A DNA stretch of 64,000 bases from Gimesia sp. (lineage in GTDB: Bacteria; Planctomycetota; Planctomycetia; Planctomycetales; Planctomycetaceae). Under the pieces are notes generated by a model. It was not told the DNA's origin. It was given only the letters and a program-made list of their open reading frames with translations, and did not search any database. The translations under genes and the position numbers were made by a program. Within the stretch, counting starts at the first letter, position 1, and the number at the start of each line of letters is the position of its first letter. Where the stretch lies: the NCBI RefSeq assembly GCF_048262075.1, contig NZ_JBLXFK010000011.1:55920-119919 (forward strand). The letters run 5' to 3'. Below are positions 4,353-35,500 of this stretch, one piece after another.

Positions 4353-5264
4353 ATGCTGGGTTGGCGGTTACTCGTTTCCGTGATCCTGATTCCACTCCTG
4401 TTCGGGCTGTTTTATCTGGATCAGCGCGCGGGAACTTCTGCTCCCTATCTGTATGGTTTGTGTTGCCTGATTATCTTTCGTGGCTGCTGGGAATTAACTC
4501 AACTCTTAACCGTACGCAAGCTGAATCCCGGATACGCGATTACCAGTCTGCTTTCATTGTTGATCTGCACATTGGCCTGGCTCCCTTATTTCAGCAATAC
4601 TGATGCGGGCAGCCCACAAGAGAGCTCGCTGGCGCTGATGTCAGTCGGCTTTTCGATTTCCATTCTGTTGATCTTTCTGAAAGGCGCAATCCGCTTTCAG
4701 GAGCCGGGACAGAGTATGGAAAACATCGGTGCAGAGATTCTCTCTGTATCCTACCTGGGATTTCTACTGGCAATGCTGGCCGAACTACGGTGGGTGGCGG
4801 GACCCGAGACCGGTTACCTGGCTTTGGGGTCACTCATTATCAGCGCTAAGATGGGAGATATTGGCGGTTACACTTTTGGCCGCTTATGGGGGAAGAAAAA
4901 ACTGGTGCCGCGACTCAGTCCAGGAAAAACATGGGTGGGTGGTTTCGGTGCCATTTTCGGAGCCGCGCTTGGATCTCTGCTCTGGTTTCAGTTCACGCCT
5001 GCTTTATTTAATCCACTCTGGACTGGCAGCAGCTGGTTCTGGGCGATCCTGTTTGGTGCCATCATCGGCCTGGTCGGACTCGTGGGTGACCTGTGTGAAT
5101 CGCTCATCAAGCGGGATGTCGGGAAAAAGGACTCCGCAGAACTCCTGCCTGGATTTGGTGGCCTGCTCGATCTCCTGGACAGTCCGCTTTATGCCGGTCC
5201 CGTGGCGTTTGTACTCTGGAAATTACTGCCACTGGTGACTGTGGTTACTGAAGCCGGCAGTTGA
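4353..5264 (+). CDS. cdsA: Phosphatidate cytidylyltransferase
   Basis: Polytopic membrane protein; SPGKTWVG, GDLCESLIKRDVGKKDS..LPGFGGLLDLLDS; directly after uppS. Confidence 0.93.
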   Translation: MLGWRLLVSVILIPLLFGLFYLDQRAGTSAPYLYGLCCLIIFRGCWELTQLLTVRKLNPGYAITSLLSLLICTLAWLPYFSNTDAGSPQESSLALMSVGFSISILLIFLKGAIRFQEPGQSMENIGAEILSVSYLGFLLAMLAELRWVAGPETGYLALGSLIISAKMGDIGGYTFGRLWGKKKLVPRLSPGKTWVGGFGAIFGAALGSLLWFQFTPALFNPLWTGSSWFWAILFGAIIGLVGLVGDLCESLIKRDVGKKDSAELLPGFGGLLDLLDSPLYAGPVAFVLWKLLPLVTVVTEAGS

Positions 5265-5833
5265 TCGGTTCGCAGGTTGCACCAGCGTAAAGCAGGTAGA
5301 TGAGCTGCGATTACAGGCAGATAGGGATCGATGGATCCTACAACTGCCAATGATGCGACTGTAGACTCGGCGGGTAAATCAAGCGACTTCAGCAGGATCA
5401 GCTCATCCGCCGGCCAGGTCAATGTCACCCAGGCCGCGATGGAATCGCTGGTTACATCCCAGGAAGCAGGTAAGGGAGCGAAGTCCACCGAGGTCGTTGT
5501 TTGCAGGTAATGTTCCGCGCAGAGTATCGGAATCTGCTGTTGCTCCCACGCTTGTTCGGCGTCTTTCTGACTGGAGACCAAACAGGTCTCGTCAAGTAGC
5601 TGGCACAGTAGCCTTTCATTCAATTTCATCGCTGCAATGGCCAGCCAGTGTGACTCGGTGGCATCCAGTTGGTGAACGGCATGCCAGTGACGTACCAGAT
5701 CGGCAGCGCTGCCTCCTCCGCAAATCAACAGGGGGCTGCGATCTTGCCAATGTCTTAGAAACTCAGAGATCCTGTCTTTCAGATCGGGGAGATCGAACAG
5801 GCTGCCTCCGAGTTTTAAGACACTGATCTTCAT
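5189..5833 (-). CDS. Amino-acid-kinase-fold protein, MfnE/Orf21-like (methanofuran/H4MPT-linked C1 pathway)
   Basis: VLKLGGSL, ICGGG, SHWLAI, SWDVTSDSIA motifs. Start moved to ATG 5833 (MKISV) because the upstream extension overlaps hisG. Confidence 0.7.
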   Translation of the reverse strand: MKISVLKLGGSLFDLPDLKDRISEFLRHWQDRSPLLICGGGSAADLVRHWHAVHQLDATESHWLAIAAMKLNERLLCQLLDETCLVSSQKDAEQAWEQQQIPILCAEHYLQTTTSVDFAPLPASWDVTSDSIAAWVTLTWPADELILLKSLDLPAESTVASLAVVGSIDPYLPVIAAHLPALRWCNLRTDQLPASVTTVTSGSNFQSTNATGPA

Positions 5834-5886
5834 CCATTTCAACCCAGCGTAAAAAGCTGACTGCTTACTGTCTCTGCGCTCAAACT

Positions 5887-6765
5887 TCAGTCGATGATTT
5901 TGGAAATCTGATATTCCACGATGCCACACGCGCCCGCTGCTTTCAGTCTGGGGACGATCGTACGGACGACTGATTCTTCCATGATCGTACTGATAGCGAC
6001 CCAGTCCGGGTCAGAGAGTGAAGAAACAGTCGGCTTCTGTAATGCGGGGAGCAGATTAAGCACTTTCTCCAGATCGGTGCGGACCACATTCATCATCACG
6101 CAGACTTTACCTTCTGCAGCCAGGCATGATTCGAGCATCATCGCGATGTTCTCCAGCTTCTCGCGCTTCCAGGGATCTTCAAACGCCTGTTTGTTGGCGA
6201 TGAATCGGGTCGTGCTCTGCATCAGCTCTTCTACAATCCGCAGGTTATTGGCCCGCAGTGAAGAACCGGTTTCGGTGACTTCCACAATCGCGTCGGCCAG
6301 CTTGGGAGGTTTGACTTCGGTCGCGCCCCAGGAAAATTCAACAGTCGCTTTCACGCCATGCTTTTCCAGGTAACGTTCTGTCATGCCGACCACTTCAGTG
6401 GCAATGCGTTTACCTTCGAGGTCTTTGACTGACTGGATGGGTGAATCTTCCGGCACACAGAGGACCCAGCGGACTGGTCGGCGGCTGACTTTAGAGAACT
6501 GCAGTTCGCAGATTTCCTGTACGTCGGCGTTGGTTTCCAGAATCCAGTCATAACCGGTAATCCCAGCATCGAGGATTCCCTGATCGACATAGCGGGCCAT
6601 TTCCTGCGCCCGGATCAGCAGGCACTCGATTTCGTCATCATCAATCGTCGGGTAGTAGGAACGGGATGAAAATTTGATGACATAGCCGGCTCGTTTGAAG
6701 AGTTCAGCCGTCGATTCCTGTAAACTTCCCGCGGGGATACCGAGTTTTAAGACCTTGTCGGACAT
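5887..6765 (-). CDS. hisG: ATP phosphoribosyltransferase (long form)
   Basis: [36 protein letters not shown]-terminal regulatory domain. Confidence 0.95.
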
Positions 6766-7224
6766 GATTCCTGTTTTTCTGAATTCGATGGTTTGATGCG
6801 TAATGTGTATGGTATTAACAGTTTAAGTATATGATCCATCACCAGCCGGGGATCAAGTTGCAAGTGGAACCTCACCAGTCGGCGAGTGATTTATGCCTGC
6901 AAAATATCCCTTGCGCGTACTCTAACAGCTAAAAAACCGCAGTTCCAGTAGCCCGGAACGAGAATGTTCATAGAAAATCCCAATCAGTGGGCTTCCATCA
7001 AGAGTGCAGTTTCTCTAGGATCGTGCAGATACGCATTCAGGATACCCGATTCCAGCCCGATTATCACTGCTGGAACCCGTGTGCATTCCGTGGAATGTCT
7101 CGGTAGTCCCACGAGGATTTGAATCCGAATAGCCACAGAGGCACACGAGTCAGCCTCTGTTCCGGCTTTAAAGATAGATTTCGTTTCCAAAATATTTTAT
7201 TAATGAGTAAGGAGAAATTCCTCG

Positions 7225-9561: not shown

Positions 9562-9625
9562 GAAAGTGACTCTTCACCAAAAGAGAAAATAATAGAGAGA
9601 TCGGAACCGGACTTTCCAACCTCTT

Positions 9626-9654
9626 ATCATCGGCGATGCAACGAGCATTGTCAA
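9626..9654 (-). promoter_or_regulatory. Sigma70-like promoter for sulfatase gene
   Basis: Minus strand TTGACA-17 nt-GATGAT about 65 nt upstream of the sulfatase ATG. Confidence 0.5.
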
Positions 9655-9712
9655 TCAATGTCAGGTTGCTGTGGTCGTATTCCGGCTTGCGTTCATTCGT
9701 TCCGATTTTGAT

Positions 9713-12367
9713 TCAGGCGCCGCTATAATCGCGCTGTTTAAAACTCATTTTCTGGAAGTCATCTTTAAATGGAGAAGCTCCCTGTTTTTCAATGTTGGCT
9801 TTCCCCAGTTTATAGCGATAACTGTGTGTGATGGGGTCGGGCACGCGATGCACCAGGCTGTTACCCATTCGTTTTCCATACAGAAACATGCCAAATAACA
9901 GGCCCGGTTTGACAGCCGTTGTCAGGATGGCGACGGCTTTCATTTCTCCGCTGCCAACGCGAATGTGACCCTCTTTCATTAATTGCGTGAAGGAAAAACT
10001 CTTGGGTTCAATATGCTGGAAGCCACTCTGCTGAACCAGAATGTCATCGCTCCACAATCGTAGATAATCACCGCTCTCAATTCCGAGCGGGCCTGCATCG
10101 TCCGGATGAATCTCTACAAACGCATCAGGCCAGCGATCCGTGAGATATTTTTCCCGTAACGTATCGAAGCCTGACTGCCAGGTTTCGTTAATTCGACCTA
10201 CGGTAAACCAGAATTCACCCTGATCACGCTGGGGCGAAATACGTTCGTAATAGTCTACGAATAACTCCCACGGACTTTGAATCAAAAGTGCTTTGCCCGA
10301 GTGCGTATTGAAATGCGTCAACCATTTAGGATGGGAAGTTGGTCCTTGTGGCGTTCCCAGGTTGAGTTCTGGATCATGCAGGCGTCTTGTGCCAACCAAT
10401 TCGTTTTCTTCGAGTCGGATCGGCGTCTGAATGCCGGTCGTTCCCAGTTCGCGCAGTGCTTCATGACCTTTGACTCCCTCCTGTTTGGCTTTCCAGACGA
10501 GCGGATAATAGTCGAGAATGTTCCCACGGCTGAAGCGGGCTGCTTCTTCAAATACGGTATTCGCGTCCTTCCAGTCAAAGCCTTTGAATCCCATTTTTTG
10601 TGCGAACTGGCTGATGGCCCACCAGTCCGGTTTGGCTTCTCCGGGCGCATCACAGAATTGGGAATACAGACGCAAACGCCGTTCGCCGTTACAGCGGGCG
10701 CCGTCATGTTCTCCCCACTGGGCGGCTGGCAGGACGATGTCTGACAATTCGGTATTGAGTGGTTCGACCGGATAAATATCGGAATCCACCAGTACCATCC
10801 CGCCACTGTCTACGCGATCGATGAGCGTCTGGATGATTTCTTCACGATTGCGACTCGAAACTTGATGCGGGTTCTCCGTCGTTTGTTGACGAAACCTCTT
10901 CAGTAGTTCCTGACTGGCGGTCATTGCGCCCAGCCATGTGGTGCCAATCACCCAGGCAAAGCGGACTTGCCCCGCGGTGACCCAGCGGTCCAGGTCGAGT
11001 TCGAGTCTACGGCGGCCGGGAAGTTTCTCTGGCGATTTGGTGCGCGGATAAGAAGCCGCTCCAATCCAGCCACGTTGGTGTCCTCCCAGACGACTGACGA
11101 CGCGGCCCGGTCGATTGCCGGCACCACATAATAATGCCAGTGCAGCGAAGCTGGTTGTGTTGGTGTAATTGTTACTCCAGTAATTCCCTTTTTCGAAACC
11201 GAAGCTGGTACGCGGCCGTTTGCCGCCGCCACCGGAAATCATTTGAGCCGCTTGTTGAATTTTCTCTGGCGGGATGCCGGTGATTTTGGCTGCCGATTCC
11301 AGTTCCGCGGGGGCGTAGTTCAGTAACCAGTCCTTATATTTTTCAAAGGACAAGGCACCGATGCTGCCCCAGGTGGTTCTCCACTGCCAAGGCGTATTGC
11401 GGGTTCCCCGTCCAAAACCGCTGTCGATCTCCCATTCGTCGGCGATCCATTTCGAGATGAACTCTTTGTCTTCCCAATTGTTTTCCAGAATGATCCGATT
11501 CATTGCCAGATGTAGTAGTGTATCGGTGCCGGGATTGATTTGCAGAAACAGGCCGCCGTTTTTTTCCGCATACGCGACTCCCGCCGTCCGTCGCGGCAGG
11601 ACCATGATGATTTTGTTGTCCTGGTTCATCATCCATTCGGTAAACAGAACCGTTTTTGATTCGTAAGGATCGGTTCCTGAAATGAACAATACTTCCGCTT
11701 CGGACCAGTCCTGATAACTGGCGCTGAACGTTTTAATGCCGGCGTCATCAAGGCCCGCCGTATCGTTGCCCATACTTGGTTTGTCATGCACAGCATAAGC
11801 GGGGGTTTGAATGGCTTCGAATGCGAGTTTGGTGATGGCGTACGTGTTTTCGAAAAACTCGTACGAATACGTTTTCATCGCCCACGCCGATTCCCCATAC
11901 TTCTTCAGCACATGCTGACTGATGGCGGCCATCACATCGAGTGCCAGATCCCAGCTAACGCGTTGCAGCTTGCCGTTAATTCTGATTTGAGGATACAGCA
12001 GCCGATCTTTGGTGGGGGCTGAGGGGTGATAACATTTCTTGGCCAGAACACCGCCTCGAATCGAGTGGTTTCCATTGGGATTCACGACGGTCGCGTCGAA
12101 GTCGGGCAGCACGGCGACGTGCTGATCTTGACCGTCGAGTTGCACTATCGCATGCTGATTCGGACTGATCCAGGGCCCAAACTGCTCACCCGGAAAATCG
12201 ACTCCCAGCGCATTCTCCTTTGCTTGAGGCTTGCCTTCCTTGCCGAGCGGCCAAGTGTAGACTTTGTATCCACAGCCGACAATGCAGTATGCACAGACGG
12301 TCGTGCTGACTTTGGCATCAACCGGGGGCAGGGGGATGGCGTCATTCGTTTGCTGGTAATCTGTCAT
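9713..12367 (-). CDS. idrA: DMSO-reductase-family molybdoenzyme large subunit, AioA/IdrA family; most likely iodate reductase IdrA-like
   Basis: CAYCIVGC (C-X2-C-X3-C) plus NHSIRGG ([3Fe-4S] type), YSYEFFENTYAITKL, C-terminal molybdopterin-binding domain, no own signal peptide; next to Rieske and peroxidase genes. Confidence 0.8.
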   Translation of the reverse strand: MTDYQQTNDAIPLPPVDAKVSTTVCAYCIVGCGYKVYTWPLGKEGKPQAKENALGVDFPGEQFGPWISPNQHAIVQLDGQDQHVAVLPDFDATVVNPNGNHSIRGGVLAKKCYHPSAPTKDRLLYPQIRINGKLQRVSWDLALDVMAAISQHVLKKYGESAWAMKTYSYEFFENTYAITKLAFEAIQTPAYAVHDKPSMGNDTAGLDDAGIKTFSASYQDWSEAEVLFISGTDPYESKTVLFTEWMMNQDNKIIMVLPRRTAGVAYAEKNGGLFLQINPGTDTLLHLAMNRIILENNWEDKEFISKWIADEWEIDSGFGRGTRNTPWQWRTTWGSIGALSFEKYKDWLLNYAPAELESAAKITGIPPEKIQQAAQMISGGGGKRPRTSFGFEKGNYWSNNYTNTTSFAALALLCGAGNRPGRVVSRLGGHQRGWIGAASYPRTKSPEKLPGRRRLELDLDRWVTAGQVRFAWVIGTTWLGAMTASQELLKRFRQQTTENPHQVSSRNREEIIQTLIDRVDSGGMVLVDSDIYPVEPLNTELSDIVLPAAQWGEHDGARCNGERRLRLYSQFCDAPGEAKPDWWAISQFAQKMGFKGFDWKDANTVFEEAARFSRGNILDYYPLVWKAKQEGVKGHEALRELGTTGIQTPIRLEENELVGTRRLHDPELNLGTPQGPTSHPKWLTHFNTHSGKALLIQSPWELFVDYYERISPQRDQGEFWFTVGRINETWQSGFDTLREKYLTDRWPDAFVEIHPDDAGPLGIESGDYLRLWSDDILVQQSGFQHIEPKSFSFTQLMKEGHIRVGSGEMKAVAILTTAVKPGLLFGMFLYGKRMGNSLVHRVPDPITHSYRYKLGKANIEKQGASPFKDDFQKMSFKQRDYSGA

Positions 12368-12433
12368 GAGATTTCCGATGAGTGAATGTTGTCGATGGTG
12401 CTGTTCATGTGAAGCAGCGGCTGTGTGAATCTT

Positions 12434-12991
12434 CTAGGCAGGCGCCTGATGGTTATTTGCATAGCCGAATATTAATCCTTGAATACCGACGGCGTAGATC
12501 TCATCGCCTTCGGTTTCGAGCAGGATTTGAGGCAAGCCGGCTGTAGCATGTCCTGAAATGACCATGCCGTGTCGTGTTAGATCAAAGGTCGTCCAGTGCA
12601 GATAACAGGGGCCTGCGATACATGCTTTGCCGTCAAAGTTTTCATCGAGCCTTGCGCCCTGATGCGTACACAGACTGTTAAACGCGACGACGTTGCTCTC
12701 GGGCCCGACCCCTCCGCCGGCGGGTTCACTCAGACGAATCAGAAAATTCTCTGCATTCACATGATCCCAGGGGTAGCGAAACTTCTGAGGCTGGTTTGAT
12801 TTGAGTTGGCTCAAGTTTCCGATTTTTTTCCGGGGATACTCGCTGCGCAGGACTTGTGATTCTCCTAAAGTGGGGAGTGTCAACGTCAGCAGGGCGGCGC
12901 CTGAGCCAAACAGGAAGTGACGACGACTTAATTGGCCGAGCTCACCCGAGCAGCCTGCGGAGGGTGTCTCACATTCAGTCTGTTTTTTCAC
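12434..12991 (-). CDS. idrB: Tat-exported Rieske [2Fe-2S] small subunit (AioB/IdrB-like)
   Basis: SRRHFLF twin-arginine signal; CTH...CYLH Rieske ligands; TTFDLTRHGMVISGHAT. Likely start GTG 12991 with AAGGA upstream (ORF track extends to 13024). Confidence 0.8.
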   Translation of the reverse strand: MKKQTECETPSAGCSGELGQLSRRHFLFGSGAALLTLTLPTLGESQVLRSEYPRKKIGNLSQLKSNQPQKFRYPWDHVNAENFLIRLSEPAGGGVGPESNVVAFNSLCTHQGARLDENFDGKACIAGPCYLHWTTFDLTRHGMVISGHATAGLPQILLETEGDEIYAVGIQGLIFGYANNHQAPA

Positions 12992-15617
12992 GAGAATGAT
13001 TTCCTTCCGATTTAGGATCGGCACTTTGGTATTCAGGCAGTGAGGGACGTTTCATCGGAATCGGTTTGCCCGATAAGGACTTGAGGAACGCCAATAAGTC
13101 GCTTCGTTCTAACTCATCCAGACCCAGTGGGCGAATCAAACTACTTTGATTCGCAGTTGAGCCGCCGCCCGTATTATAAAAATCGATGACTTCTTCCAGC
13201 GTCCCGAACAAGCCGTTGTGCATATAGGGAGCAGTATGCGTGAGACCGCGAAGCGAAGGCGTGCGAAATTTGCCACGATCTGCTTCGCGTTTGGTGACGT
13301 AATATAAGCCGTCATCAGTGAAAGCGCTGCGATAGATATTTTGGGGCACACCTTTCGCAGCGAGTTCATAGCGGAACGTAATCTGCTTGATCGGGCTGGT
13401 CAGAAAGCCTGGATTCTGCGGAACCCCGATCGCGTAATAATTGTCATCGCTGGCCAGGGGGCCGTTGTGACAGGAAATACAGCCTGCTTTACCCTGAAAC
13501 AGATGATAACCCCGCTTGGCGGCCGGTGAGAGCGCGCTGGGGTCGCCTTTCAGAAAACGGTCAAAGGGAGTGTTATTGCTGACGATGGTTCTCTGAAATG
13601 AAGCGACGGATCGTAAAGCGTCATCCCAGCGAGGCAGGTCCGTTCCATAAATGGATTGAAACTGTTTGACATAGTCTGGTATCTGGGCAAGCCGTTCTTC
13701 ACCCAGAGTCGGGTCAAGATTACTGGCGACCGCGCCCGTCCAGGCACCGTTGTTTTGACTCTCGATACTGGTTTTGGCACCATCCCAGTTCAGCTTTCCA
13801 TAGTATCCCACGTTGAGAATGGTTTGCGAGTTCCTCCAGTGACTGGTTCCCGGTCCGCCCATGGAAATCGGCGTTTGGATCGTCCAGCCAGTATTGACCG
13901 GGTGACAACTGTTGCAGCTCATCGAACTGTCAGCCGACATTCGATGGTCAAAATAGAGCTGTCGGCCCAGTTCAATCTTTTCAGGAGTCAACGGGTTATC
14001 GGCGGGAGTGGGCACTGCAGGCAGTAAAGCTAGCGGAGGGAACGTTCGTGAGTTGTCAGCTTGTGCTGGCGTTGGTTTATTGGTTTGCTCCTGTGCCGCT
14101 GTTTCTCTACGCGGCAATAACTGATACGCGGGCAACTCGGGCCGTTCAACTTCGACGGATTTACTGCTCAAACTTTTCAGGAAGGCGACCAGGGCTTGCT
14201 GTTCCGGTCCTGTGAGATTCAATGGTTTCAGATCGGCTGTCTGCTGCGGACCGCCGCCTGCGTTATAAAAGGAGATGACCTCTTCCAGTGTTTTCAAGCT
14301 GCCGTTATGCATATAAGGAGCAGTTTTGGCGACTTCATACAGAGAGGGGGTACGAAACTTACCACGATCTTGTGTGTGGAAGGTCATTGATTCCCGACCG
14401 GGGTCCTGTTTCCGATTGCGGTAGTTGGGAGTTCCCAGGATGCGGAAGAAGCGGCGAAACGTGACCGCGCGTTCCGGGTCAGCCAGCAGATCGACTTTTT
14501 TAGGGACATCGAGGGCATGAAATCTCTGATCGGTGAGCGTCGGCTCTTGATGACAGTTCACACAACCTGCTTTGCCGCGAAACAGTACCAGCCCCCATTG
14601 TGCTTGATTCGAAAGGGCAGCGGTTTGTCCTGCCTGAAACGCGTCGTAAGGTGTCTGTCGGGAATTGAGTGTCCTGACATAAGCGGTTAACGCATTGAGG
14701 ATGCGACCAAACCGTGGTGCGCCACCATAGGCTTTTTCAAACAGTTCGCGATACGCGGGGACTTGTACCATGCGTTCGACCAGCAGCCTGCCATCACTGG
14801 CCATGAAATGGGCTTCAGTGAGATGGTCGCGGACCACGCTGGGTAAGTCGCCGATGCGTCCATCCAGAAAATATTCCTTCTGATAGCGGAGGTTTGAGAG
14901 TGAAGGCGTATTGCGAAACAGTTTCGTGGAAGGAAAACCTTTACTGAGCGGGCTGCCGTCAGTCCAGCTTATATCGGGTTGATGGCAGTTGGCGCAACTG
15001 AGCGAATTATTGGCTGAGAGGCGTTTATCGAAAAAAAGATAACGTCCAAGTGTGATCTCGGCTGCAGAAGGTACACTGAGACCGCCTGCTTTCAATGGAG
15101 CAGTATTGGATTCAACTGGCAAAGCGACTTCAATTGATTTTTGTTGTGTGGAGGAGTGATTGAAGGGAGACGCTGTCGCCGGTTTTCCCAGTGAGTCGAG
15201 GTAATTCACAATCAGATCCAGATCGTCGGCACTCAGCGAGTCTGCGAATGACTGCAACATGACACCCGCGGGATACTCATTTTCGGTTCCCTCAGGGGCG
15301 ATGAACGCATCAGGATTTTGAATCGACTCGCGAATATATTGTTTCGCGGTCTGATTTTTTCTGCGAGTTGCTGCTGTGATTCCCAGGCGAGATAGATCAG
15401 GGCCGACTTCACCATCGGCACCGGGCACACCGGGAATGATGTGGCAGCCGGCACAGCCTCCCAGATTGAAAGCATTAATGACGGCAAAAAGATTTTGTTT
15501 CGCTTTTGAATCCGACTTTTTTGAGTTTGATTGTGCGAAACCAGTTTCGAATCCCGAGAGGCAAAAAAATAAACACCAGATCATAACGGGTAGAATCGTT
15601 CTTTGAGGAATCATCAA
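12975..15617 (-). CDS. Pentaheme fusion: class I cytochrome c plus two di-heme cytochrome c peroxidase/MauG-like modules (IdrP1-P2 fusion-like)
   Basis: Signal peptide; five CXXCH motifs (CAGCH, CANCH, CVNCH, CNSCH, CISCH); two copies each of LG..L.FD.R.S, GKFRTPSL and APYMHNG. Confidence 0.85.
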   Translation of the reverse strand: MMIPQRTILPVMIWCLFFCLSGFETGFAQSNSKKSDSKAKQNLFAVINAFNLGGCAGCHIIPGVPGADGEVGPDLSRLGITAATRRKNQTAKQYIRESIQNPDAFIAPEGTENEYPAGVMLQSFADSLSADDLDLIVNYLDSLGKPATASPFNHSSTQQKSIEVALPVESNTAPLKAGGLSVPSAAEITLGRYLFFDKRLSANNSLSCANCHQPDISWTDGSPLSKGFPSTKLFRNTPSLSNLRYQKEYFLDGRIGDLPSVVRDHLTEAHFMASDGRLLVERMVQVPAYRELFEKAYGGAPRFGRILNALTAYVRTLNSRQTPYDAFQAGQTAALSNQAQWGLVLFRGKAGCVNCHQEPTLTDQRFHALDVPKKVDLLADPERAVTFRRFFRILGTPNYRNRKQDPGRESMTFHTQDRGKFRTPSLYEVAKTAPYMHNGSLKTLEEVISFYNAGGGPQQTADLKPLNLTGPEQQALVAFLKSLSSKSVEVERPELPAYQLLPRRETAAQEQTNKPTPAQADNSRTFPPLALLPAVPTPADNPLTPEKIELGRQLYFDHRMSADSSMSCNSCHPVNTGWTIQTPISMGGPGTSHWRNSQTILNVGYYGKLNWDGAKTSIESQNNGAWTGAVASNLDPTLGEERLAQIPDYVKQFQSIYGTDLPRWDDALRSVASFQRTIVSNNTPFDRFLKGDPSALSPAAKRGYHLFQGKAGCISCHNGPLASDDNYYAIGVPQNPGFLTSPIKQITFRYELAAKGVPQNIYRSAFTDDGLYYVTKREADRGKFRTPSLRGLTHTAPYMHNGLFGTLEEVIDFYNTGGGSTANQSSLIRPLGLDELERSDLLAFLKSLSGKPIPMKRPSLPEYQSADPKSEGNHSREKTD

Positions 15618-15885
15618 TACCCTGTTTCATTCGCGAGTTGTGCTGGTTTCGATTTTCAGAAAAACTTCAGTTTGAGTATAGGCCATGCGAATGGGAAATG
15701 TAATACAGGGTAGAAGACTCTCTTCAGTAACCGGCAGCATGAGCCCCACTGAGGACAGATGACCAGTTATGGTTATAAGAAACGACGTGGGAAAAACAGG
15801 ATATCGAGCATTCAATTCTGGCGAGATTTGCAAACAGACTACATTGACTCCCGGTTCAGTTTATCACCGGAGCGTGTACCAAAGA

Positions 15886-15921
15886 AAAACGTCCTGAACC
15901 AGGATTGGTCCAGGACGTTTT
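15886..15921 (-). terminator. Hairpin terminator downstream of tRNA-Gln
   Basis: AAAACGTCCTG...CAGGACGTTTT inverted repeat immediately 3' of the tRNA. Confidence 0.75.
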
Positions 15922-15925
15922 AAAA

Positions 15926-15996
15926 TTGCCCGACTAGGATTCGAACCTAGACTAAGTGAGTCAGAGTCACTCGTGCTACCGTTACACTATCAGGCA
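15926..15996 (-). tRNA. tRNA-Gln (anticodon CTG), CCA not encoded
   Basis: Reverse complement folds: TGCCTGA/TCGGGCA acceptor stem, AGTGA-CT-CTG-AC-TCACT anticodon arm, CTAGG-TTCGAAT-CCTAG T-arm. Confidence 0.95.
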
Positions 15997-16219
15997 ATAG
16001 ATGGTGCATGATATTACGTTGATAAGCTTAGTGGATAGCATCACTTGCAGCTTTCTCAGGCCATTATAGGGAATTTTTCTTCTACGCCAAGTCGATCAGG
16101 GAGAGAATTTTCTATTCTTTTTGGTCTGTTTCACACTTTTAAGCTGTTTGCGAGTATGACAGTATATAAACAGGGTCGGTTCATACGAAAGGGCCTGTCA
16201 TCGATTACTTTTCCCGGGA

Positions 16220-18472: not shown

Positions 18473-19013
18473 GCCTTAAATTCAATCGTAAGTTTCCCAT
18501 ACCTCCTGTTTTATGCTGTCCAGAGAATCGCTACTAACGTTGATGGACAATGTTTCATGCATTGATCGTTGGTGACCCTGATTTTCGCCCCAAAAATATT
18601 GATTAATTTTTTAATCAGATTGCCCCGCGTCCCGCCTCTCAGTTGATCGGACAAGATCAGTATAAGGGTATGAAATGTAAGTACTTGCGCTTTGTTAAGT
18701 ATGACCTGATTTCACTTCTTCACTTCTGCGTTTTCCAAGCACCCCTACGATTAGCATATTTCGTCTCAACTTCACAATGCGATTATTCCGAAAGATCAGA
18801 ATAACCGCTTGTACCCGGATAATCGGTAGAGTTTTACATCCGACCGGGGATGAGCGAAAGAATAGAACAGGTTTCGCCTGCCTATTCGCTTCGAACGGTC
18901 TTGCACACAAAGGATCAGACATCCTGATTGTGAAAGACCGGGAGATGATGAGGAACGAAGTTGATCGTCTGGAATCGTAAGAGACGAGTTATACATCGAC
19001 GTTGGAGCATTCG

Positions 19014-22000
19014 ATGAAGAAATTAAGTGTCAGCCTGGCCTGCTTCTTTTTAGCCTCTCAGTACGTACTGGTGTCTGCCTTTGCAGATCCAGCGTCCCCT
19101 GAAGGTAATCAATCAGAGGGACAAGCGACGATTGGTGAGCCAGCAGGTTCTGCTATCGTAGGAAACGTTTCTTCGGGTGTGTTCAGGCATGATTTTATTC
19201 CTGCGAACACAGTCCAGAGAAATAATGTTCCTGGTTATACAACCATGAAGGAAGTGGGTTACCAGGATAACTTACAGGGATATGCTCCCTACAGATATCC
19301 TGATCCTCGCACCATGGAAGTCAACGAATTTGTCGATAACGGAGCCGGTTATCAGCCCATGGATGTGGATGCGTTCCATCCCCTCTTCCGCCTGGATAAA
19401 GGCATTGGTGGTGGTATTGGTTACGACGATGGTTATTCCAACTTGGGTGTCTTACTCCCGTTCACGATCAACCCTGAGCAAAGCATGCTCTTCCTTGATC
19501 TGCGGGCTATGGTCACCGACCAGGGAGCCGGCGGTGTTAACCTCGGGGCTGGCTGGCGGGCTTACAGCGACAATCTTGATAAGATTTTCACGGTAGCAGG
19601 CTGGTACGATTACGATGACGGACACTTCCAGGATTACCACCAGATCGGTTTGAGTGGTGAAGTCATTGGCCAGTATCTGACAACGCGCGTTAACGGTTAT
19701 TTTCCCATCAATAATAATGAGATCATTGTCTCTAACAACCTGTCAGGAAGTGCCTACTTCCAGTCAAATCGAATTTATCTGAACCGCACGCGACGGTCTG
19801 AATCTTCTTATGGTGGTGTCGACGCAGAAGTCGGTGGTCCGCTGCCTGTACTCGGAAAATTTGGTATCGACGCCTTTGTCGGCGGATACTATTACAATTC
19901 TGATCACGACAAGAGTGCCGCAGGTGCCAAGTTCCGTGCGGAAGCCAATATCAATGACTGGTGGCAGATGAGTGTCAGCTATGCCAAGGACTCCGTCTTC
20001 GGTTCCAACGCATGGATGAATGTGACGCTCTCGATTCCTGAAGGCCGATCTGACAAGTGGATGCGGCCCAAAACATTGCAACAGCGCATGTATCAGCCTA
20101 TGAATCGTAACTACCGCGTTGTTGCCAACGTGAAAGAAACGACAACAAATGAACTCGCTATCAATCCTGATGATGGCCTGCCTTATACCGTTGCACACAT
20201 TGATCCGGATTACGGTGCTGTCGGCGATGGTACTTATGAAACACCATTCGGTTCAGTCGCCTCCTACAACGCTTCACCACCAACTACCATGACAGATATC
20301 ATCTTCGTACAGGACGGTAACGAGCTGAACCTGGATGGCCAGATCACTCTGCTGGATAACGGTGGTGGAATCGGTGGAGTTACCGGTCAGCGTCTGTTGA
20401 GTGAAGCGGTAGAGCATAGCTTCAATACACTCGATACCAATGGAAATGTCGTCAGTCTTACTCTGCCTGGATACAACTCGTCAGCCAGCCGTCCTACACT
20501 CACTAACTTAAATGGTGCGGGTGGATTTGCCGGTGCGGTTGTCGTCGGTGAAGGTGGCGCCTGGGAGGTCTCAGGTTTCAATATCAGTGGGGTTCGGACA
20601 GCAGGTCTGGCACATAATGATGGTATCTACTCAGCGGGAACTCGCGGTTTCGATATCAACCGGAACACTTTTGTGCTGTTCAACAGTGGTGTTAATGTCA
20701 CCAACAATGCCAGTGAAACGGGAATTGTTTCCAGTAACACCTTTTCTGGCGATGGTGTGAATTCTTTTTACGGTGCCCAGATCACACAAACTTCAGGCAC
20801 AATGGAACTGTCGTTTAAGGATAACGCCGCGACGAATGTGCTTGGTGTTACTCCACCAGGTTCAGGAATCGGCTTTGAAATTAATGCGAATGCGGGAAGT
20901 ACCATTGATGGTGTCGGAACCGCCACTGATGGGGTGACAGCACTCGGTATTACCGGGAATACGGCCAACAGCAACGGGACCGGTATGATTATTACTGCCG
21001 ATGGCGCTTCCACGATCGATACTGATTTTTCCAACAACACCTTCAGTAATAATACAAATGCCACCACAAGTGGTCTGGTTGTCAATTCCGATGATAGTAC
21101 AGTCATCTTTCGCAGCTTCGATACGATCACAGCCAGCAACAATGCCGGAAATGGTATAGCCTTTAATACCACTAGAACAGGTGTCGGCGGAACAATATCT
21201 GCCCTCTCAGAAGACCTGAACCAGAACAATATTCTCGATCCGGGTGAAGATCTGAACGGGGATGGCGAACTCAATCTGGGTATGACCAGCATCAATGCCA
21301 GCAATAACGGTGTTGATGGTTTTGTAGCGACTTCCGATGGAGCCGGTTCAACCATCAATTTGAATCTTGGAAATGCCAATGCTACCACAAACATTTTTAG
21401 CAGCAACGGCCAGAACGGTATCAGCCTGAATACGTCAACCAATGGTGCGATTGGCGGCAGTATCGTCAATAACACTGCTTCTGCGAATGGTCAGGATGGT
21501 TTAGCCTTTACACTCACCACCGGTACGATTGATCTGACTGGCTTTGGTTCACCTTCCATCGGCAGTAACAGCCTCACAGGCAACACCCGCCACGGGATGA
21601 GCATTGTGAACAACACAGGCGGTGCCTTCACTACCTCGCTGATTTCTTCTAACGACTTCAGTAATAACACCGAAGCCGGGATGTTTATCGGGGGAGCTGC
21701 CCTGGGCGGAACCAACACTGCCGTCAACACGCTGGGCAGTATCGATTCCAATAATTTCGATCGGACGACGCTCGGCACATATGGTATCCAGTTTGATTCC
21801 AGCGATGTCCGAACGACAGCCACGATCACCAGCAACTCATTCATCGGACGTGCTCCCAACGCACCTGATGCTGGAGCCGGTCCTGGCGTCGGCGGTACGG
21901 TTACCGGTACGACCACCGTTGGTGGAAACGGTGGTGTGACCCTGACCTTTGGTAATCTGGCCTCCATTGATAACTCAGAGGTCAATATCTTCCAGAACAA

Positions 22001-23891
22001 CGGCGATGCTCATATCGGTATCGTGATGGAAGGCAATACGACCAATACTGTGAATGTTGACCAGCACGACTTTAACACCGCCGTAGATACCACTGTGAAC
22101 ACTGACTTCGACGGACAGGGCGTAGGGTTTATCCTGCGGGATACAGCAACTATGACAGGAATATTCCAGCGTAACACCTTCCAGAACAACGAGGCATCCG
22201 GCCTGTTCTTTAGTGTAACCGGTAATAATGGTGCCGACTTCGCTCAACTCAACAATATCTCTGTCGGTACTGGTACCGAACCATTCGGAAATACATTCAC
22301 CGGTAACGGCGGCAGTGGTCTGGAAGTTATTCGTACTGCCAACGGTGTCGTGAATAATTTCTCGGTCCTGTATAACACCTTTACTGCCAACACTCTGGAC
22401 GGGATCAGCCTGACCGCTGCGAATGCAGATCAGGTTGATACCTATACCGTCAACGATAACACCATTACAGGAAACCTTCAGAATGGTATTGATATCAGAG
22501 TGCAGGCCGATGCAGAGCTGAATGCGAATATGACACGCAATACGATTACCGGAAACCAGGCGAATGGTATCCGCACTACGGAACAGGCCAACGATCCTTC
22601 AGATAATCGTACTGTCTCAGGGAACTGGACTGCAAATACGATCACGGGCAATACTTTGAGTGGTATCAACCTCGATGCTCACTCAGATGGTCTGGTGATC
22701 GGGGATACGGCCAATTCTGCCCTGGGCAACGAAATTTCGAATAACGGTGATGATGGTCTGTCGCTCACAGGGCCTGCTACAGGAGCGGGGCTGACCATTG
22801 GATATAACATGATTTCTGAAAACACAGTCCATGGTATTGATATGGATGTGCGTGCCTCAAATATCACCAATATTGTGAATAACGATATTACTCTGAACGG
22901 TGGTGATGGTATTGAATTTACTAATGCCACGTCAGGGGGCTTTGCTCTGGTGGTCACGGGTAACACAATCGACTTCAACAATGGTCGTGGTTTCGACGTT
23001 CTGACTCGTCCAGGTTCACTGGGGGCAGCAAGCTACGATATTACCTTTAATAATAACATCGTGAATGCGAACCTTGAGGAAGGGGTGTATGTCGTCTACA
23101 CCGCTTCAAATACGCAGACACAGGATGTTGCTTCCACGGTGGCATTGAACAGTGATGGTAACCTGACACACGTAGTCTTCCTGGATATGGATATGGATAA
23201 TAACCAGATTCTGGCAAACGGATTTAACAGTGGGTTCTCTGCGACTGGCCTGGTGGTTCGTGTTGGTACAACCGATGGAGAGAATGGATCTCTGAATAAT
23301 TACGATGACGGTGGCTTTGCCAGCAATGGAGCGGGAGTCGCAAGCCGTTCCGGTGTTATCATGTCGGTAACGAATTCAACGCTGACAGGCAACTATGGTT
23401 CTGACGCGTTCTTCGAATCCTTCGTCTCCACAGTTGATCCCGTGGCGACAGCCGGAACTTGGGGGGCCACAAACGACCCAACCGCCATCACAGCATTTCA
23501 ATCAGACGCTCTCGCCCGTTTAGACCTGTTGTGGGATAATAACACCACAATCTCGGCTGATGTGAATAACATCGGTGCCGCTTACAATAATTCCGATACC
23601 TTTAAGTCGCGTTTGAATACTGTAGCTACTACGCCGGGGCCATTTACTTCAAATACACGACGTCGTAATGCTCAACGTCAGGCTGCCCGTATTCCGAACC
23701 TGATTGCTCCAGGGGCAGGTACCTTCCTCTACTCAGGTATCGGAGCCAGTACCTTCCGTGTTGACAGCTCAGGTGATACCGGACTCTTCTTTCTGGACGG
23801 AAATCCCTATACCACAACCGGAGATGCAAACGGTATCAACTATGGTGGTGCGATTACCGGCGAACTGCCATTCGGCTGGGGACAGTACTAA
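19014..23891 (+). CDS. Large surface protein: inverse-autotransporter-like beta-barrel plus Asn/Gly/Thr-rich beta-helix passenger
   Basis: GGAG 6 nt before ATG 19014; signal peptide; alternating-aromatic barrel segment (GVNLGAGWRAY, GWYDYD, TTRVNGYFP); about 1100 aa of N..G..G repeats. Confidence 0.75.
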   Translation: MKKLSVSLACFFLASQYVLVSAFADPASPEGNQSEGQATIGEPAGSAIVGNVSSGVFRHDFIPANTVQRNNVPGYTTMKEVGYQDNLQGYAPYRYPDPRTMEVNEFVDNGAGYQPMDVDAFHPLFRLDKGIGGGIGYDDGYSNLGVLLPFTINPEQSMLFLDLRAMVTDQGAGGVNLGAGWRAYSDNLDKIFTVAGWYDYDDGHFQDYHQIGLSGEVIGQYLTTRVNGYFPINNNEIIVSNNLSGSAYFQSNRIYLNRTRRSESSYGGVDAEVGGPLPVLGKFGIDAFVGGYYYNSDHDKSAAGAKFRAEANINDWWQMSVSYAKDSVFGSNAWMNVTLSIPEGRSDKWMRPKTLQQRMYQPMNRNYRVVANVKETTTNELAINPDDGLPYTVAHIDPDYGAVGDGTYETPFGSVASYNASPPTTMTDIIFVQDGNELNLDGQITLLDNGGGIGGVTGQRLLSEAVEHSFNTLDTNGNVVSLTLPGYNSSASRPTLTNLNGAGGFAGAVVVGEGGAWEVSGFNISGVRTAGLAHNDGIYSAGTRGFDINRNTFVLFNSGVNVTNNASETGIVSSNTFSGDGVNSFYGAQITQTSGTMELSFKDNAATNVLGVTPPGSGIGFEINANAGSTIDGVGTATDGVTALGITGNTANSNGTGMIITADGASTIDTDFSNNTFSNNTNATTSGLVVNSDDSTVIFRSFDTITASNNAGNGIAFNTTRTGVGGTISALSEDLNQNNILDPGEDLNGDGELNLGMTSINASNNGVDGFVATSDGAGSTINLNLGNANATTNIFSSNGQNGISLNTSTNGAIGGSIVNNTASANGQDGLAFTLTTGTIDLTGFGSPSIGSNSLTGNTRHGMSIVNNTGGAFTTSLISSNDFSNNTEAGMFIGGAALGGTNTAVNTLGSIDSNNFDRTTLGTYGIQFDSSDVRTTATITSNSFIGRAPNAPDAGAGPGVGGTVTGTTTVGGNGGVTLTFGNLASIDNSEVNIFQNNGDAHIGIVMEGNTTNTVNVDQHDFNTAVDTTVNTDFDGQGVGFILRDTATMTGIFQRNTFQNNEASGLFFSVTGNNGADFAQLNNISVGTGTEPFGNTFTGNGGSGLEVIRTANGVVNNFSVLYNTFTANTLDGISLTAANADQVDTYTVNDNTITGNLQNGIDIRVQADAELNANMTRNTITGNQANGIRTTEQANDPSDNRTVSGNWTANTITGNTLSGINLDAHSDGLVIGDTANSALGNEISNNGDDGLSLTGPATGAGLTIGYNMISENTVHGIDMDVRASNITNIVNNDITLNGGDGIEFTNATSGGFALVVTGNTIDFNNGRGFDVLTRPGSLGAASYDITFNNNIVNANLEEGVYVVYTASNTQTQDVASTVALNSDGNLTHVVFLDMDMDNNQILANGFNSGFSATGLVVRVGTTDGENGSLNNYDDGGFASNGAGVASRSGVIMSVTNSTLTGNYGSDAFFESFVSTVDPVATAGTWGATNDPTAITAFQSDALARLDLLWDNNTTISADVNNIGAAYNNSDTFKSRLNTVATTPGPFTSNTRRRNAQRQAARIPNLIAPGAGTFLYSGIGASTFRVDSSGDTGLFFLDGNPYTTTGDANGINYGGAITGELPFGWGQY

Positions 23892-32436: not shown

Positions 32437-32523
32437 ACCTGTTTTGAATGCTCTGCGTTCGATTTGATCTATTTCCACCAGCGATTTTCAGCGCGGCGTC
32501 AGCCGTTTGGTATACCGCGGCCC

Positions 32524-35500
32524 ATGTCACAAAAAGATATCATTATTACCGGTGCTCGAGAGCACAATCTGCAGAACGTCAGTGTTCGACTTCCCCGAAA
32601 TCAGCTGATCGTCATGACCGGCGTGAGTGGCTCCGGAAAAAGTTCACTCGCCTTCGATACCCTGTATGCAGAAGGTCAGCGTCGCTACGTCGAATCACTG
32701 TCCAGTTACGCACGCCAGTTTCTCGGGCAGATGCCGAAACCCGAAGTCGATGCGATTTCCGGCCTCGCACCTTCGATTTCCATTCAGCAGAAAATGAGTG
32801 GCCGCAACCCCCGCAGTACCGTGGGGACGATCACAGAAATTTACGATTACCTCCGCGTCCTGTTTGCCCGGGTAGGACAGGGTTTCTGCGAAAATTGTGG
32901 AAAACCGATCAGCTCGCAAAGCAGCGAACGTATTATCGATTCGATCACGCTGCTCCCGGAAAAGACCCGATATTCCATTCTCGCGCCGTTGATTCAGCAG
33001 CAGAAGGGAGAGTACAAAGACCTGTTTGAAGATCTGCTCAAACAGGGCTTTCTCCGGGCTCGCGTGGATGGTCGCATTATTCAACTGTCCGATCAACTGC
33101 AGCTCGACCGCCAGATGCGTCACACCATCGAAGTCGTGATTGACCGTCTCGTCGCCGGCAAAGTCAGTCGGGCCCGCCTGGCAGAGTCCGTGGAACTCGC
33201 CTTGAAACTGGCGAACGGCACACTGATTATCGCCACAGAAGTCTCAAAGAAAACAGAGAGCAGCGACAGCGAAGAAAGCCTGCAGGACAAACTCTATAGT
33301 TCCCGCTATGCCTGTACTGATTGCGGCATCAGTTACGAACCACCCACGCCGCAGTTGTTCAGCTTTAACAGTCCCCTGGGGATGTGCGGTGAATGTAACG
33401 GGCTGGGAATGCGGTACGATTTTCCACTCGATGCATTGATTTCCAAAGAGACCGTGTCGATTCAAAAAGGGGCCTTTGAACTGCTGGGGCCGCTCAGCAA
33501 AGTCGGTAAGTGGCGACGTCACATTTATAATGGCGTCGCACGTTCGATTGAAAACGATCTGAATCTTGACGAAGACAGCTTCCTGAAAACTCCCTGGAAT
33601 GAATTGCCTGCCGCCGCACAACAACAGTTTCTGTACGGGACCGGCGATCGCAATATCACCTTCAGCTGGCGGCATTCGGGGGGCATCTGGAAACATGGGG
33701 GCACCTGGGATGGCTATGTCGAAGAACTGCTGGAAAGTTACCGCAAAACCAGTAATCCCATGCGGCGGAAACAGCTCGAAAAATACATGGACTTTGTTGA
33801 ATGCTCGAGCTGTCACGGCACGCGTCTGAATTCGCAGGCCCGGCATGTGCGCATTACCTCTCTCAGTGAGTCGCACACCAGCAAACAGTCACACACTTCA
33901 AAAACTCTACCCGAGGTCTGTGCCTTCAGTATCGAAGAAGCCGCCGGTTTCTTTGAAACTTTGGATCTGGATGAAACCGGTTTACTGATCGCCGACGAAG
34001 TCCTCAAAGAGATTCGCGGCCGACTCGGATTTCTACTGCGTTGCGGCTTGAATTATCTGACGCTGGATCGCACCGCGCCTACACTTTCCGGCGGTGAAAG
34101 TCAGCGAATTCGCCTCGCCGGGCAGATTGGCTGTGGCCTGGTGGGGGTCGTCTATATTCTGGATGAACCTTCGATTGGCCTGCATCCCCGCGACAATACG
34201 ATGCTGCTGGAAAGTCTCTGCGACTTGCGCGATCAGGGCAATACGGTCATCGTCGTCGAACACGATGAAGAAACCATGCGCGCCGCCGATCACATTGTAG
34301 ACTTCGGACCCGGCCCAGGTGTGCGTGGCGGTTACATCGTTGCAGAAGGCTCGTATCAGAAAGTTCTTAAGGCGAAGGAGAGCGTCACCGGGCAGTTCCT
34401 TTCCGGTAAAGAGAAAATCGAGATCCCCGAGCAGCGCCGGACACTCGTCAAAAAAGATTCGATTGTCATCAAAGGGGCGAAGCATCATAACCTGAAAGAC
34501 ATCACCGCCCGCATTCCCACCAAAGGGCTGATCTGTGTGACCGGCGTGAGCGGGTCGGGAAAAAGTTCTCTCATCAACGATATTCTCTGGCCGGTCCTGA
34601 ATAAAAACGTGAATCGCGGCAAAGGGAATCCCGGTGCGCATCGGAGTGTGACCGGCCTGGATCTGATCGACAAAGCCATCGACATCGATCAGTCCCCCAT
34701 CGGCCGCACGCCCCGTTCCAATCCGGCGACTTACGTGAAGGTATTCGATCTGATTCGGGACCTGTATGCCAAACTCCCCGATTCCCGCATGCGAGGCTAT
34801 AAAGCGGGACGTTTCAGCTTCAATGTGCCCGGCGGTCGCTGTGAAGCCTGCGAAGGGCACGGCGCCAATAAACTGGAAATGGATTTTCTCGCGGATGTCT
34901 GGGTTCCCTGTCCGGTGTGCGAAGGCCGCCGCTTTCATCATGAGACACTCGAGATTCGCTATAAAGACGCGAACATCGCTGAAGTACTCGAGATGGATAT
35001 TCAGCAGGCGATTGAACATTTTCAGAATGTACCCAAAATCTTAAAGCTGCTCGAATCCCTGCATGACGTGGGCCTGGACTATCTGAAACTCGGGCAACCC
35101 TCGCCGACCCTCTCCGGCGGGGAAGCACAGCGAGTCAAACTCGCCCGTGAACTCGGGAAACGTTCCACAGGCAGTACCTTTTATCTGCTGGATGAACCAA
35201 CGACCGGATTGCATTTTGCCGATGTGAAACTGCTGCTCAAAGTGCTGCATCATCTGGCGGATGCCGGCAATACGGTGCTCGTGGTCGAACATCACCTGGA
35301 TGTCATTAAAACCGCCGACTGGGTGATCGACCTCGGTCCCGAAGGAGGCGAAGGGGGAGGCACGATTCTGGTAGAAGGCACGCCGGAAGAAGTCGCCGCC
35401 TGTCCCTGGTCGTACACGGGGCTGGCACTCAAAGAACAGACTGATCTGGTTCCCGCGAAAACCGTCAAAGGGAAAAAGAAACAGGCACTGATCCTGAATA

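Follow-up and report, generated by a model that had tools for sequence, protein, structure and literature searches.

Introduction

Iodate reductases of the Idr type are encoded in the order idrP2, idrP1, idrB and idrA in Pseudomonas sp. SCT, Denitromonas IR-12 and Ca. Methylomirabilis iodofontis (PMC10989891). The two di-haem peroxidase genes upstream separate idr neighbourhoods from those of the arsenite oxidase genes, aio (PMC8692401). Azonexus hydrophilus NCP973 is a cultured iodate respirer, and nitrate reductases occur in each of the five iodate respirers isolated (PMC13455634). In Roseovarius azorensis, the protein WP_093034476 was identified from an iodate-reductase activity band; static cultures of this bacterium reduce iodate when oxygen is limiting, with induction seen at 0.1 µM iodate (PMC11445184). 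Deeper-branching IdrA hosts have been reported from Planctomycetaceae, Rokubacteria, Lindowbacteria and NC10 (Reyes-Umana et al. 2021, PMC8692401), and the best hit of Ca. M. iodofontis IdrA is a Planctomycetaceae protein (PMC10989891). In this study, we analysed 64,000 nucleotides of a Gimesia sp. genome (GCF_048262075.1, contig NZ_JBLXFK010000011.1, positions 55,920 to 119,919; hereafter the window), which contain genes for a peroxidase fusion, a Rieske protein and a molybdenum enzyme. An earlier sequence-only reading had proposed that they act on iodate or a related oxyanion. Our analysis indicates, with a probability of about 0.75, that the locus is a periplasmic Idr-type iodate reductase (idrP2-idrP1-idrB-idrA) in a marine Gimesia.

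Results

Gene content and order of the operon

The three genes are co-oriented and tightly packed on the minus strand, with open reading frames (ORFs) spanning 9713-15617 of the window. The 17-bp overlap between the idrB start (GTG 12991) and the peroxidase gene and the 66-bp gap between the Rieske and Mo genes were exactly as first described. The 884-aa Mo enzyme carried the Pfam domains Rieske_3 [3Fe-4S], Molybdopterin and Molydop_binding, and its N-terminal [3Fe-4S] motif, CAYCIVGC at residue 25 followed by HSIRGG, has the required C-X2-C-X3-C spacing. The Rieske protein contained a twin-arginine motif (SRRHFLF) together with CTH and CYLH, and was 93% identical across 185 aa to IdrB of a second Gimesia genome. 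A signal for twin-arginine translocation (TAT) was found on IdrB and a Sec signal on the fusion. IdrA has no signal peptide and is, therefore, presumably exported together with IdrB.

Gene order was compared among loci fetched with either the window IdrA or the Azonexus IdrA as query, counting those with enough upstream sequence. Both peroxidase modules lay upstream of idrB-idrA in 93 loci. In 91 of them, including that of A. hydrophilus NCP973, the modules were two separate genes for cytochrome c peroxidases (CCPs) in the order ccp-ccp-Rieske-Mo. The operon had been described as rearranged, and this does not hold, as its P2-P1-B-A order is the canonical one of these 91 loci and of the published clusters (PMC10989891). 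It has three genes rather than four because P2 and P1 are fused. We found no peroxidase in the aio loci compared, including those of NT-26 and Acidiphilium; aioXSR, ars or genes for cytochrome c stood there instead. These results support the peroxidase pair as the hallmark that parts idr from aio loci.

The isolated iodate reducers were then set against the window, Azonexus NCP973 (L083) directly and Denitromonas iodatirespirans IR-12 and Pseudomonas sp. SCT through published descriptions (PMC8692401, PMC13455634, PMC10989891). They share with the window the set of four functional modules, arranged in an identical order and orientation, a TAT signal on IdrB with none on IdrA, a Sec signal on the peroxidase, and an IdrA of the same clade with the same signature residues at 55% identity. 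They differ from it in that the window has P2 and P1 on one polypeptide with an N-terminal cytochrome c domain, its IdrA falls in another subclade, and its host is an aerobic planctomycete without the nitrate reductases Nar or Nap. Unlike Azonexus, the window has no separate c-type cytochrome or moaA gene downstream and no sigma-54/sensor pair upstream.

One Planctomycetaceae metagenome-assembled genome (MAG) showed a different partner set for an Idr-clade enzyme. In this locus (L004, 3523-10703), an IdrA homologue 60% identical to that of the window was preceded by a 1426-aa DUF7133-HEAT-cytochrome c protein, and no peroxidase or Rieske gene was detected there by tblastn.

The large subunit belongs to the IdrA clade

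The 884-aa protein was searched by tblastn against annotated plasmids. Identity to the plasmid-borne homologues was bimodal: the IdrA of A. hydrophilus NCP973, an iodate respirer, was 55% identical and a Vibrio homologue 48%, against 25-30% for every canonical AioA, including those of NT-26 (28%) and Thermus HB8. Two trees were built, a quick one of 54 rows and a careful one (IQ-TREE, LG+C20) of 39 rows with four AioA sequences, and both agreed. R. azorensis IdrA WP_093034476 was placed via its 90% cluster. The trees are without the enzymes from oxygen minimum zone MAGs (Fu_MAG_99, Arabian10_MAG_27) that were validated by heterologous expression in E. coli DH5alpha (PMC13455634), and we thus do not claim that tested enzymes bracket the subclade of the window.

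In the careful tree, the AioA clade had a support of 97/95. A branch of length 1.23 with 100/100 support split AioA from IdrA plus a Dehalococcoidia sequence without peroxidase neighbours. The latter branched first, which fits the 'unknown clade' of Reyes-Umana et al. The IdrA clade proper (95/93) fell into three subclades. One comprised marine Alpha- and Gammaproteobacteria and Ca. Methylomirabilis iodofontis. Another, neighbouring that of the window, held the validated Azonexus and R. azorensis enzymes. The subclade of the window itself (100/99) contained Gemmataceae, Phycisphaerae, other Planctomycetota, Lindowbacteria, Omnitrophica, Acidobacteria and Chloroflexota. The 884-aa protein was nested in the IdrA clade with 95-100% support and lay outside the AioA clade.

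We next compared residues at 13 discriminating columns, in which AioA is invariant and at least 95% of the IdrA sequences differ from it. At 12 of the 13 the window had the IdrA residue, and at one the AioA-invariant residue. The AioA loop DHGGxGGG was replaced by SY with a four-residue deletion, HNRP by HDKP, and HQEGY by HQRGW with a nine-residue insert. Among 157 columns invariant across 26 sequences of the other two IdrA subclades, 154 were kept in the window, and the three exceptions concern positions at which members of its own subclade vary as well. Only 58 columns were invariant across AioA and IdrA jointly. Identities, trees and signature columns agree with the proposal that the Mo enzyme is of the IdrA type and not of the AioA type, and indicate from sequence that the large subunit belongs to the IdrA clade.

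Public annotation would instead name the locus an arsenite oxidase, AioAB, with accessory peroxidases. The two proteins do pass the cut-offs of the arsenite oxidase models TIGR02693 (446 bits for the 884-aa protein, cut-off 359) and TIGR02694 (99 bits for the idrB product, cut-off 96), and relatives go under the names 'arsenate reductase (azurin) large subunit' or 'arsenite oxidase'. However, these NCBIfam models also capture validated IdrA and IdrB, and they do not discriminate because the IdrA proteins of Azonexus NCP973 and R. azorensis bear the same product name. The best solved-structure match of the large subunit was arsenite oxidase (E 4e-88; PDB 4AAY of NT-26, 1G8K of Alcaligenes faecalis). 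The NT-26 (Pseudorhizobium banfieldiae) and A. faecalis enzymes resemble the window in having a large subunit with molybdenum-bis(pyranopterin guanine dinucleotide) (Mo-bisPGD) and [3Fe-4S], a TAT Rieske small subunit and the same fold family. Organisms of the clade just outside IdrA oxidise arsenite (Reyes-Umana et al.), and three active-site residues discussed below are kept. Against this stand an identity of 25-30% to real AioA (28% to NT-26), the long 100/100 branch to a separate clade, the single AioA-type residue among the 13 columns, the deleted DHGGxGGG loop, the presence of peroxidase genes, and neighbours that include no aioXSR, ars or phosphonate-type genes. We regard an arsenite oxidase as very improbable here, and catalysis is expected to be reductive and not oxidative.

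A further difference was seen within the IdrA family at the [3Fe-4S] motif (12272-12295, IdrA residues 25-32). In an alignment excerpt, it begins with CAYC in the window and in the three nearest relatives included there (Gemmataceae, Chloroflexota and P0005), and with CDYC in the other IdrA sequences of the excerpt. This Asp-to-Ala change beside a cluster ligand might shift the [3Fe-4S] potential.

The two peroxidases are fused to each other and to a cytochrome c

The fusion protein consists of a Sec signal, a cytochrome c domain, an IdrP2-like module, a linker rich in Pro, Ala and Thr, and an IdrP1-like module. It contains five CxxCH motifs, at residues 55, 208, 352, 568 and 713, four of them in the two peroxidase modules and one in the cytochrome c domain, and two PYMHNG motifs. 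The database entry P0124 begins at the ATG of the fusion. The best structural matches of the modules were bacterial di-haem CCPs (3O5C, 4AAL, 1IQC and 1EB7; E 1e-40 to 1e-44), from Shewanella, Geobacter (MacA), Nitrosomonas and Pseudomonas, whereas the similarity to MauG was far lower (1e-14). When compared by tblastn with the unfused clusters of more than 80 loci, module A was usually the better match to the first ccp gene (idrP2). The second ccp gene was about 45-57% identical to module B and about 33-44% identical to module A.

The fusion is genuine and no assembly artefact, because the same 879-aa product was found, 89.5% identical, in a second Gimesia genome, and because equivalent fused genes lie upstream of idrB-idrA in four further loci (L002, L003, L247 and L249). 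The cytochrome c-P2-P1 gene of a Gemmataceae MAG encodes 876 aa, and a Phycisphaerae MAG has a P2-P1 gene for 766 aa that lacks the cytochrome c domain. Of the contigs that were read, the two with the nearest IdrA homologues (78% and 74% identity) have fused genes of 885 and 1153 aa, in planctomycete-like surroundings with DUF1501 and sulfatase genes. A length-restricted homology search recovered the fusion in no fewer than 52 clusters of environmental proteins, whose representatives are 780 aa or longer and have five or more CxxCH. In one relative with 72% identity, a cytochrome c-CCP gene is accompanied by a separate CCP gene, and a Chloroflexota locus shows an intermediate arrangement. These intermediates indicate that the cytochrome c domain and the fusion were acquired stepwise within the subclade. 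Neither PMC8692401 nor PMC10989891, when searched for the fusion, mentions it.

The origin of the N-terminal cytochrome c domain was also considered. A fused form of the separate c-type cytochrome encoded downstream of idrA in Azonexus gained no support, as BLASTP aligned only the haem motif (E 0.037), and a PDB sequence search with the domain gave no match. In trihaem peroxidases (E. coli YhjA and the quinol peroxidases), an extra N-terminal c-type haem domain precedes a di-haem CCP module and is the point of electron entry. These are membrane-anchored quinol peroxidases with one CCP module, whereas the fusion of the window has two, is tied to idrBA and bears a signal that is probably cleaved off.

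Some related loci had further features. An extracytoplasmic function (ECF) sigma factor gene lies directly upstream of the fused peroxidase gene in L247 (2237-6370) and L249 (2256-6300), and none is present in the window. The L249 fusion has an extra N-terminal extension of about 270 aa, which overlaps the end of the sigma gene and may be an anti-sigma domain. In three proteins of about 1000 aa from Elusimicrobiota and metagenomes (P0191, P0193 and P0201), a WD40 beta-propeller stands together with CCP and cytochrome c domains that are related to the window fusion.

Host genome, distribution and selection

The window HisG was 93-98% identical to HisG of Gimesia MAGs, and the next matches were from Planctomycetaceae. 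The host suspected to be a planctomycete is thus a Gimesia. Its genome comprises 7.3 Mb in 41 contigs and is 100% complete. We found a bona fide MoaA and two cytochrome b genes in it, and no cbb3-type CcoN, Nar or Nap. Only two other MopB proteins are encoded, a NasA/NasC-like cytoplasmic protein and a member of the FdhF/YdeP family. A chlorite dismutase partner was ruled out, as the sole Cld-family protein is the haem synthase HemQ.

A survey of planctomycete genomes found the cluster to be rare. Of the 22 genomes of the genus, 2 had a full-length IdrA homologue, as did 3 of 61 near relatives. The operon was intact in 5 of 401 evenly sampled Planctomycetota genomes, this one included (about 1%). 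At these frequencies, a tie of planctomycetes as a group to iodine cycling, as suggested by the sequence-only reading, is overstated. So is the view that the system is unexpected in this lineage, since Planctomycetaceae were named as IdrA hosts by Reyes-Umana et al. in 2021. The planctomycete genomes are left unnamed in the supplements of PMC8692401, and literature searches returned nothing for Gimesia with iodate or for Planctomycetes with idrA.

Compared with sister Gimesia genomes, the idr operon forms a clean presence/absence block of 6.3 kb between a conserved sulfatase gene and tRNA-Gln(CTG). In the closest relative, G009 (L338, slot 5204-7224), the flanks were 83-88% identical, and the slot was filled by about 2 kb of repetitive non-coding DNA with units of about 300 bp. 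G002 (L339, slot 4452-5107) had 655 bp instead of the block. No idr remnants were found in the empty sites of G009 and G002, so gain and loss are indistinguishable at these two sites. In the second operon-bearing Gimesia species (G013, L340), the block occupied the same site. Around the block we found only short chance repeats, no att-like direct repeats, and no integrase or mobility genes. The slot beside the tRNA gene looks like a variable hotspot without integrase or att repeats.

Substitution rates were compared between the two operon-bearing Gimesia species. The synonymous divergence (dS) of the idr genes was 0.44-0.61, and the ratio of nonsynonymous to synonymous divergence (dN/dS) was 0.04-0.09, which indicates strong purifying selection on the operon. 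The flanking genes had dS values of 0.87 (adenylylsulfate (APS) kinase), 1.03 (hisG) and about 1.9 or saturated (sulfatase and tetratricopeptide repeat (TPR) genes). Since the dS of the idr genes is well below these values, the sequences suggest that the operon was exchanged within the genus after the species split, later than the divergence of its flanks.

A recently acquired passenger block, unexpressed or without a role in the host, would fit the patchy distribution (2 of 22 genus genomes, about 1% of the phylum sample), the variable slot beside a tRNA gene, the lack of an adjoining regulator, and the existence of a decayed copy elsewhere in the family. This copy, in a sixth genome of the 401 (L337, G325:C1:5657090-5657812; a different genus of Planctomycetaceae), is an idrA homologue of which just the C-terminal quarter is left, 65% identical to residues 642-883 and with two in-frame TGA codons, which points to loss. 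In the window, however, all three ORFs are intact, dN/dS is 0.04-0.09 at a dS of about 0.5 between two species, MoaA and cytochrome b complexes are available, and the GC content does not deviate. We therefore give the passenger explanation only a very small chance.

Coordinates and neighbouring genes

The features of the system and its borders are listed in Table 1. The other neighbours of the operon are unrelated to it: sulfatase, APS kinase, HisG, TPR proteins and a giant beta-helix protein. Elsewhere in the window there are very long ORFs at 32464-39483 (2339 aa) and 19002-23891 (1629 aa, beta-helix domain).

Table 1. Features of the idr locus and its borders, in window coordinates
Feature	Coordinates	Strand	Evidence and remarks
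idrP2P1 fusion gene	12975..15614	-	879 aa from ATG 15614; Pfam Cytochrom_C and two CCP_MauG
idrP2P1, alternative start	TTG 15617, one codon upstream of the ATG	-	880 aa (ORF 12975-15617)
N-terminal monohaem cytochrome c domain of the fusion	15189..15458	-	residues about 54-143, CAGCH; Pfam PF00034, 56 bits
Peroxidase module A (idrP2 equivalent)	14118..15062	-	residues about 186-500; position and best match
Peroxidase module B (idrP1 equivalent)	13008..13997	-	residues about 541-870
idrB, TAT Rieske [2Fe-2S] small subunit	12434..12991 (GTG start); longer ORF 12434-13024	-	TIGR02694; Pfam Rieske and TAT_signal
idrA, Mo-bisPGD catalytic subunit	9713..12367	-	884 aa; hidden Markov models, identities, trees, signature columns
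6.3-kb accessory block	9578..15884		only idr operon, promoter region and terminator-like hairpin; blastn of window against G009, G002 and G013
tRNA-Gln(CTG)	15925..15997	-	ARAGORN; upstream border of the block, landmark outside the system
tRNA-Gln terminator, 16-bp stem	15886-15921	-	terminator scan; homology break at 15885

Discussion

Every defining feature of idrABP1P2 that can be checked by computation was found in the locus, and the features that discriminate AioAB were absent from it. Several observations nevertheless weigh against an iodate reductase. The peroxidase-less Dehalococcoidia outgroup has 11 of the 13 IdrA signature residues. These signatures, therefore, mark IdrA plus the outgroup and not iodate activity, and the last step of the assignment depends on tree position and synteny. 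The residues that we take to form the AioA substrate funnel, His195, Glu203, Arg419 and His423 of the Alcaligenes enzyme, were located through the NT-26 alignment; His, Arg and His are common to AioA and IdrA, and only Glu is changed, to Asp. Because these three are kept in both families, sequence alone leaves arsenite or another oxyanion possible as substrate. The subclade of the window has no assayed member, and its nearest validated enzymes are only 55-56% identical. The host has no Nar or Nap and, besides IdrA, only NasA-like and YdeP-like MopB proteins, unlike the five isolated iodate respirers. Finally, the adjoining genes include no regulator and no dedicated electron donor gene.

Some of these points would also suit an Idr-like reductase for a high-potential oxyanion or oxidant other than iodate, such as bromate, chlorate or an unknown one. 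If its by-product were also of the peroxide type, this would explain the conserved peroxidase partners. About 45% of the residues differ from the validated subclade, the well-supported (100/99) subclade of the window holds no tested enzyme, the accessory architecture differs (cytochrome c domain, fusion, and the ECF sigma or two-component neighbours of relatives), and the host has no denitrification background of the kind seen in all isolated iodate respirers. On the other hand, the window keeps 154 of the 157 residues invariant in the other IdrA subclades, with its three changes at subclade-variable positions, and the P2-P1-B-A synteny is identical. The habitat is marine, and iodate in the sea, although sub-micromolar, occurs everywhere and at far higher levels than bromate or chlorate. 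We consider a different substrate unlikely, and iodate remains the preferred one.

The electron route and the physiological role that we infer for this iodate reductase follow published models of Idr (PMC8692401, PMC13455634, PMC10989891). Electrons would leave the quinol pool via one of the two cytochrome b-containing complexes and reach a c-type haem. From there they would pass to the IdrB Rieske centre, the [3Fe-4S] cluster of IdrA and Mo-bisPGD, the presumed site of IO3- reduction. In one published model, the products would be HIO and H2O2; HIO would end as iodide, and the two di-haem peroxidase modules would remove the H2O2. IdrAB would be exported by TAT and the fusion by Sec. The monohaem domain of the fusion is probably its own electron-entry haem, and its also feeding IdrB is speculation. 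Because both modules are on one polypeptide, the presumed IdrP2/IdrP1 pair would be made 1:1.

R. azorensis (PMC11445184), like the host of the window, is an aerobic marine heterotroph, and in both the system likely serves under oxygen limitation. Its IdrA (represented by L022 and P0248) is about 56% identical to that of the window. It differs from the window in having separate peroxidase genes and an IdrA of a different subclade; its activity was established by activity staining and LC-MS/MS, whereas that of the window is predicted from sequence. Since the host is aerobic and has no Nar, Nap or cbb3, a role similar to that in R. azorensis, as an auxiliary electron sink under oxygen limitation and not for strict anaerobic growth, is likely.

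We rate as new the P2-P1 fusion variant of a known Idr system, in a branch of the family that has no assayed member. Planctomycetaceae were already known as IdrA hosts, and the gain is incremental for a trait that is rare in the phylum. The public labels 'arsenite oxidase' and 'arsenate reductase (azurin)' also cover enzymes of the iodate-reductase type. The conversion of iodate to iodide in seawater affects iodine speciation and, via iodide, how ozone is deposited at the sea surface. Few organisms, almost all of them Proteobacteria, are so far listed as converting iodate enzymatically, and the window belongs to a large non-proteobacterial IdrA branch that has never been assayed. Here, an intact and selectively maintained idr operon lies in a Gimesia genome of isolate-like quality, and the genus has cultured species. 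As close relatives lack exactly the 6.3-kb block, they can be used as natural controls.

The fusion bears on the role of IdrP1 and IdrP2, for which models based on H2O2 and on HIO have been published. Its covalent joining of P2 and P1, with a cytochrome c built in, argues for joint action of the two peroxidases, at a stoichiometry fixed relative to the reductase. A further idea, which we put forward tentatively and think improbable on present evidence, is that the pentahaem fusion is a single-chain IdrP heterodimer and also the electron-entry wire for IdrAB, giving an otherwise strictly aerobic Gimesia its sole alternative respiratory acceptor. If this were true, the role of the Idr peroxidases could readily be tested on the natural pair of sister species of which one has the 6.3-kb block and the other lacks it.

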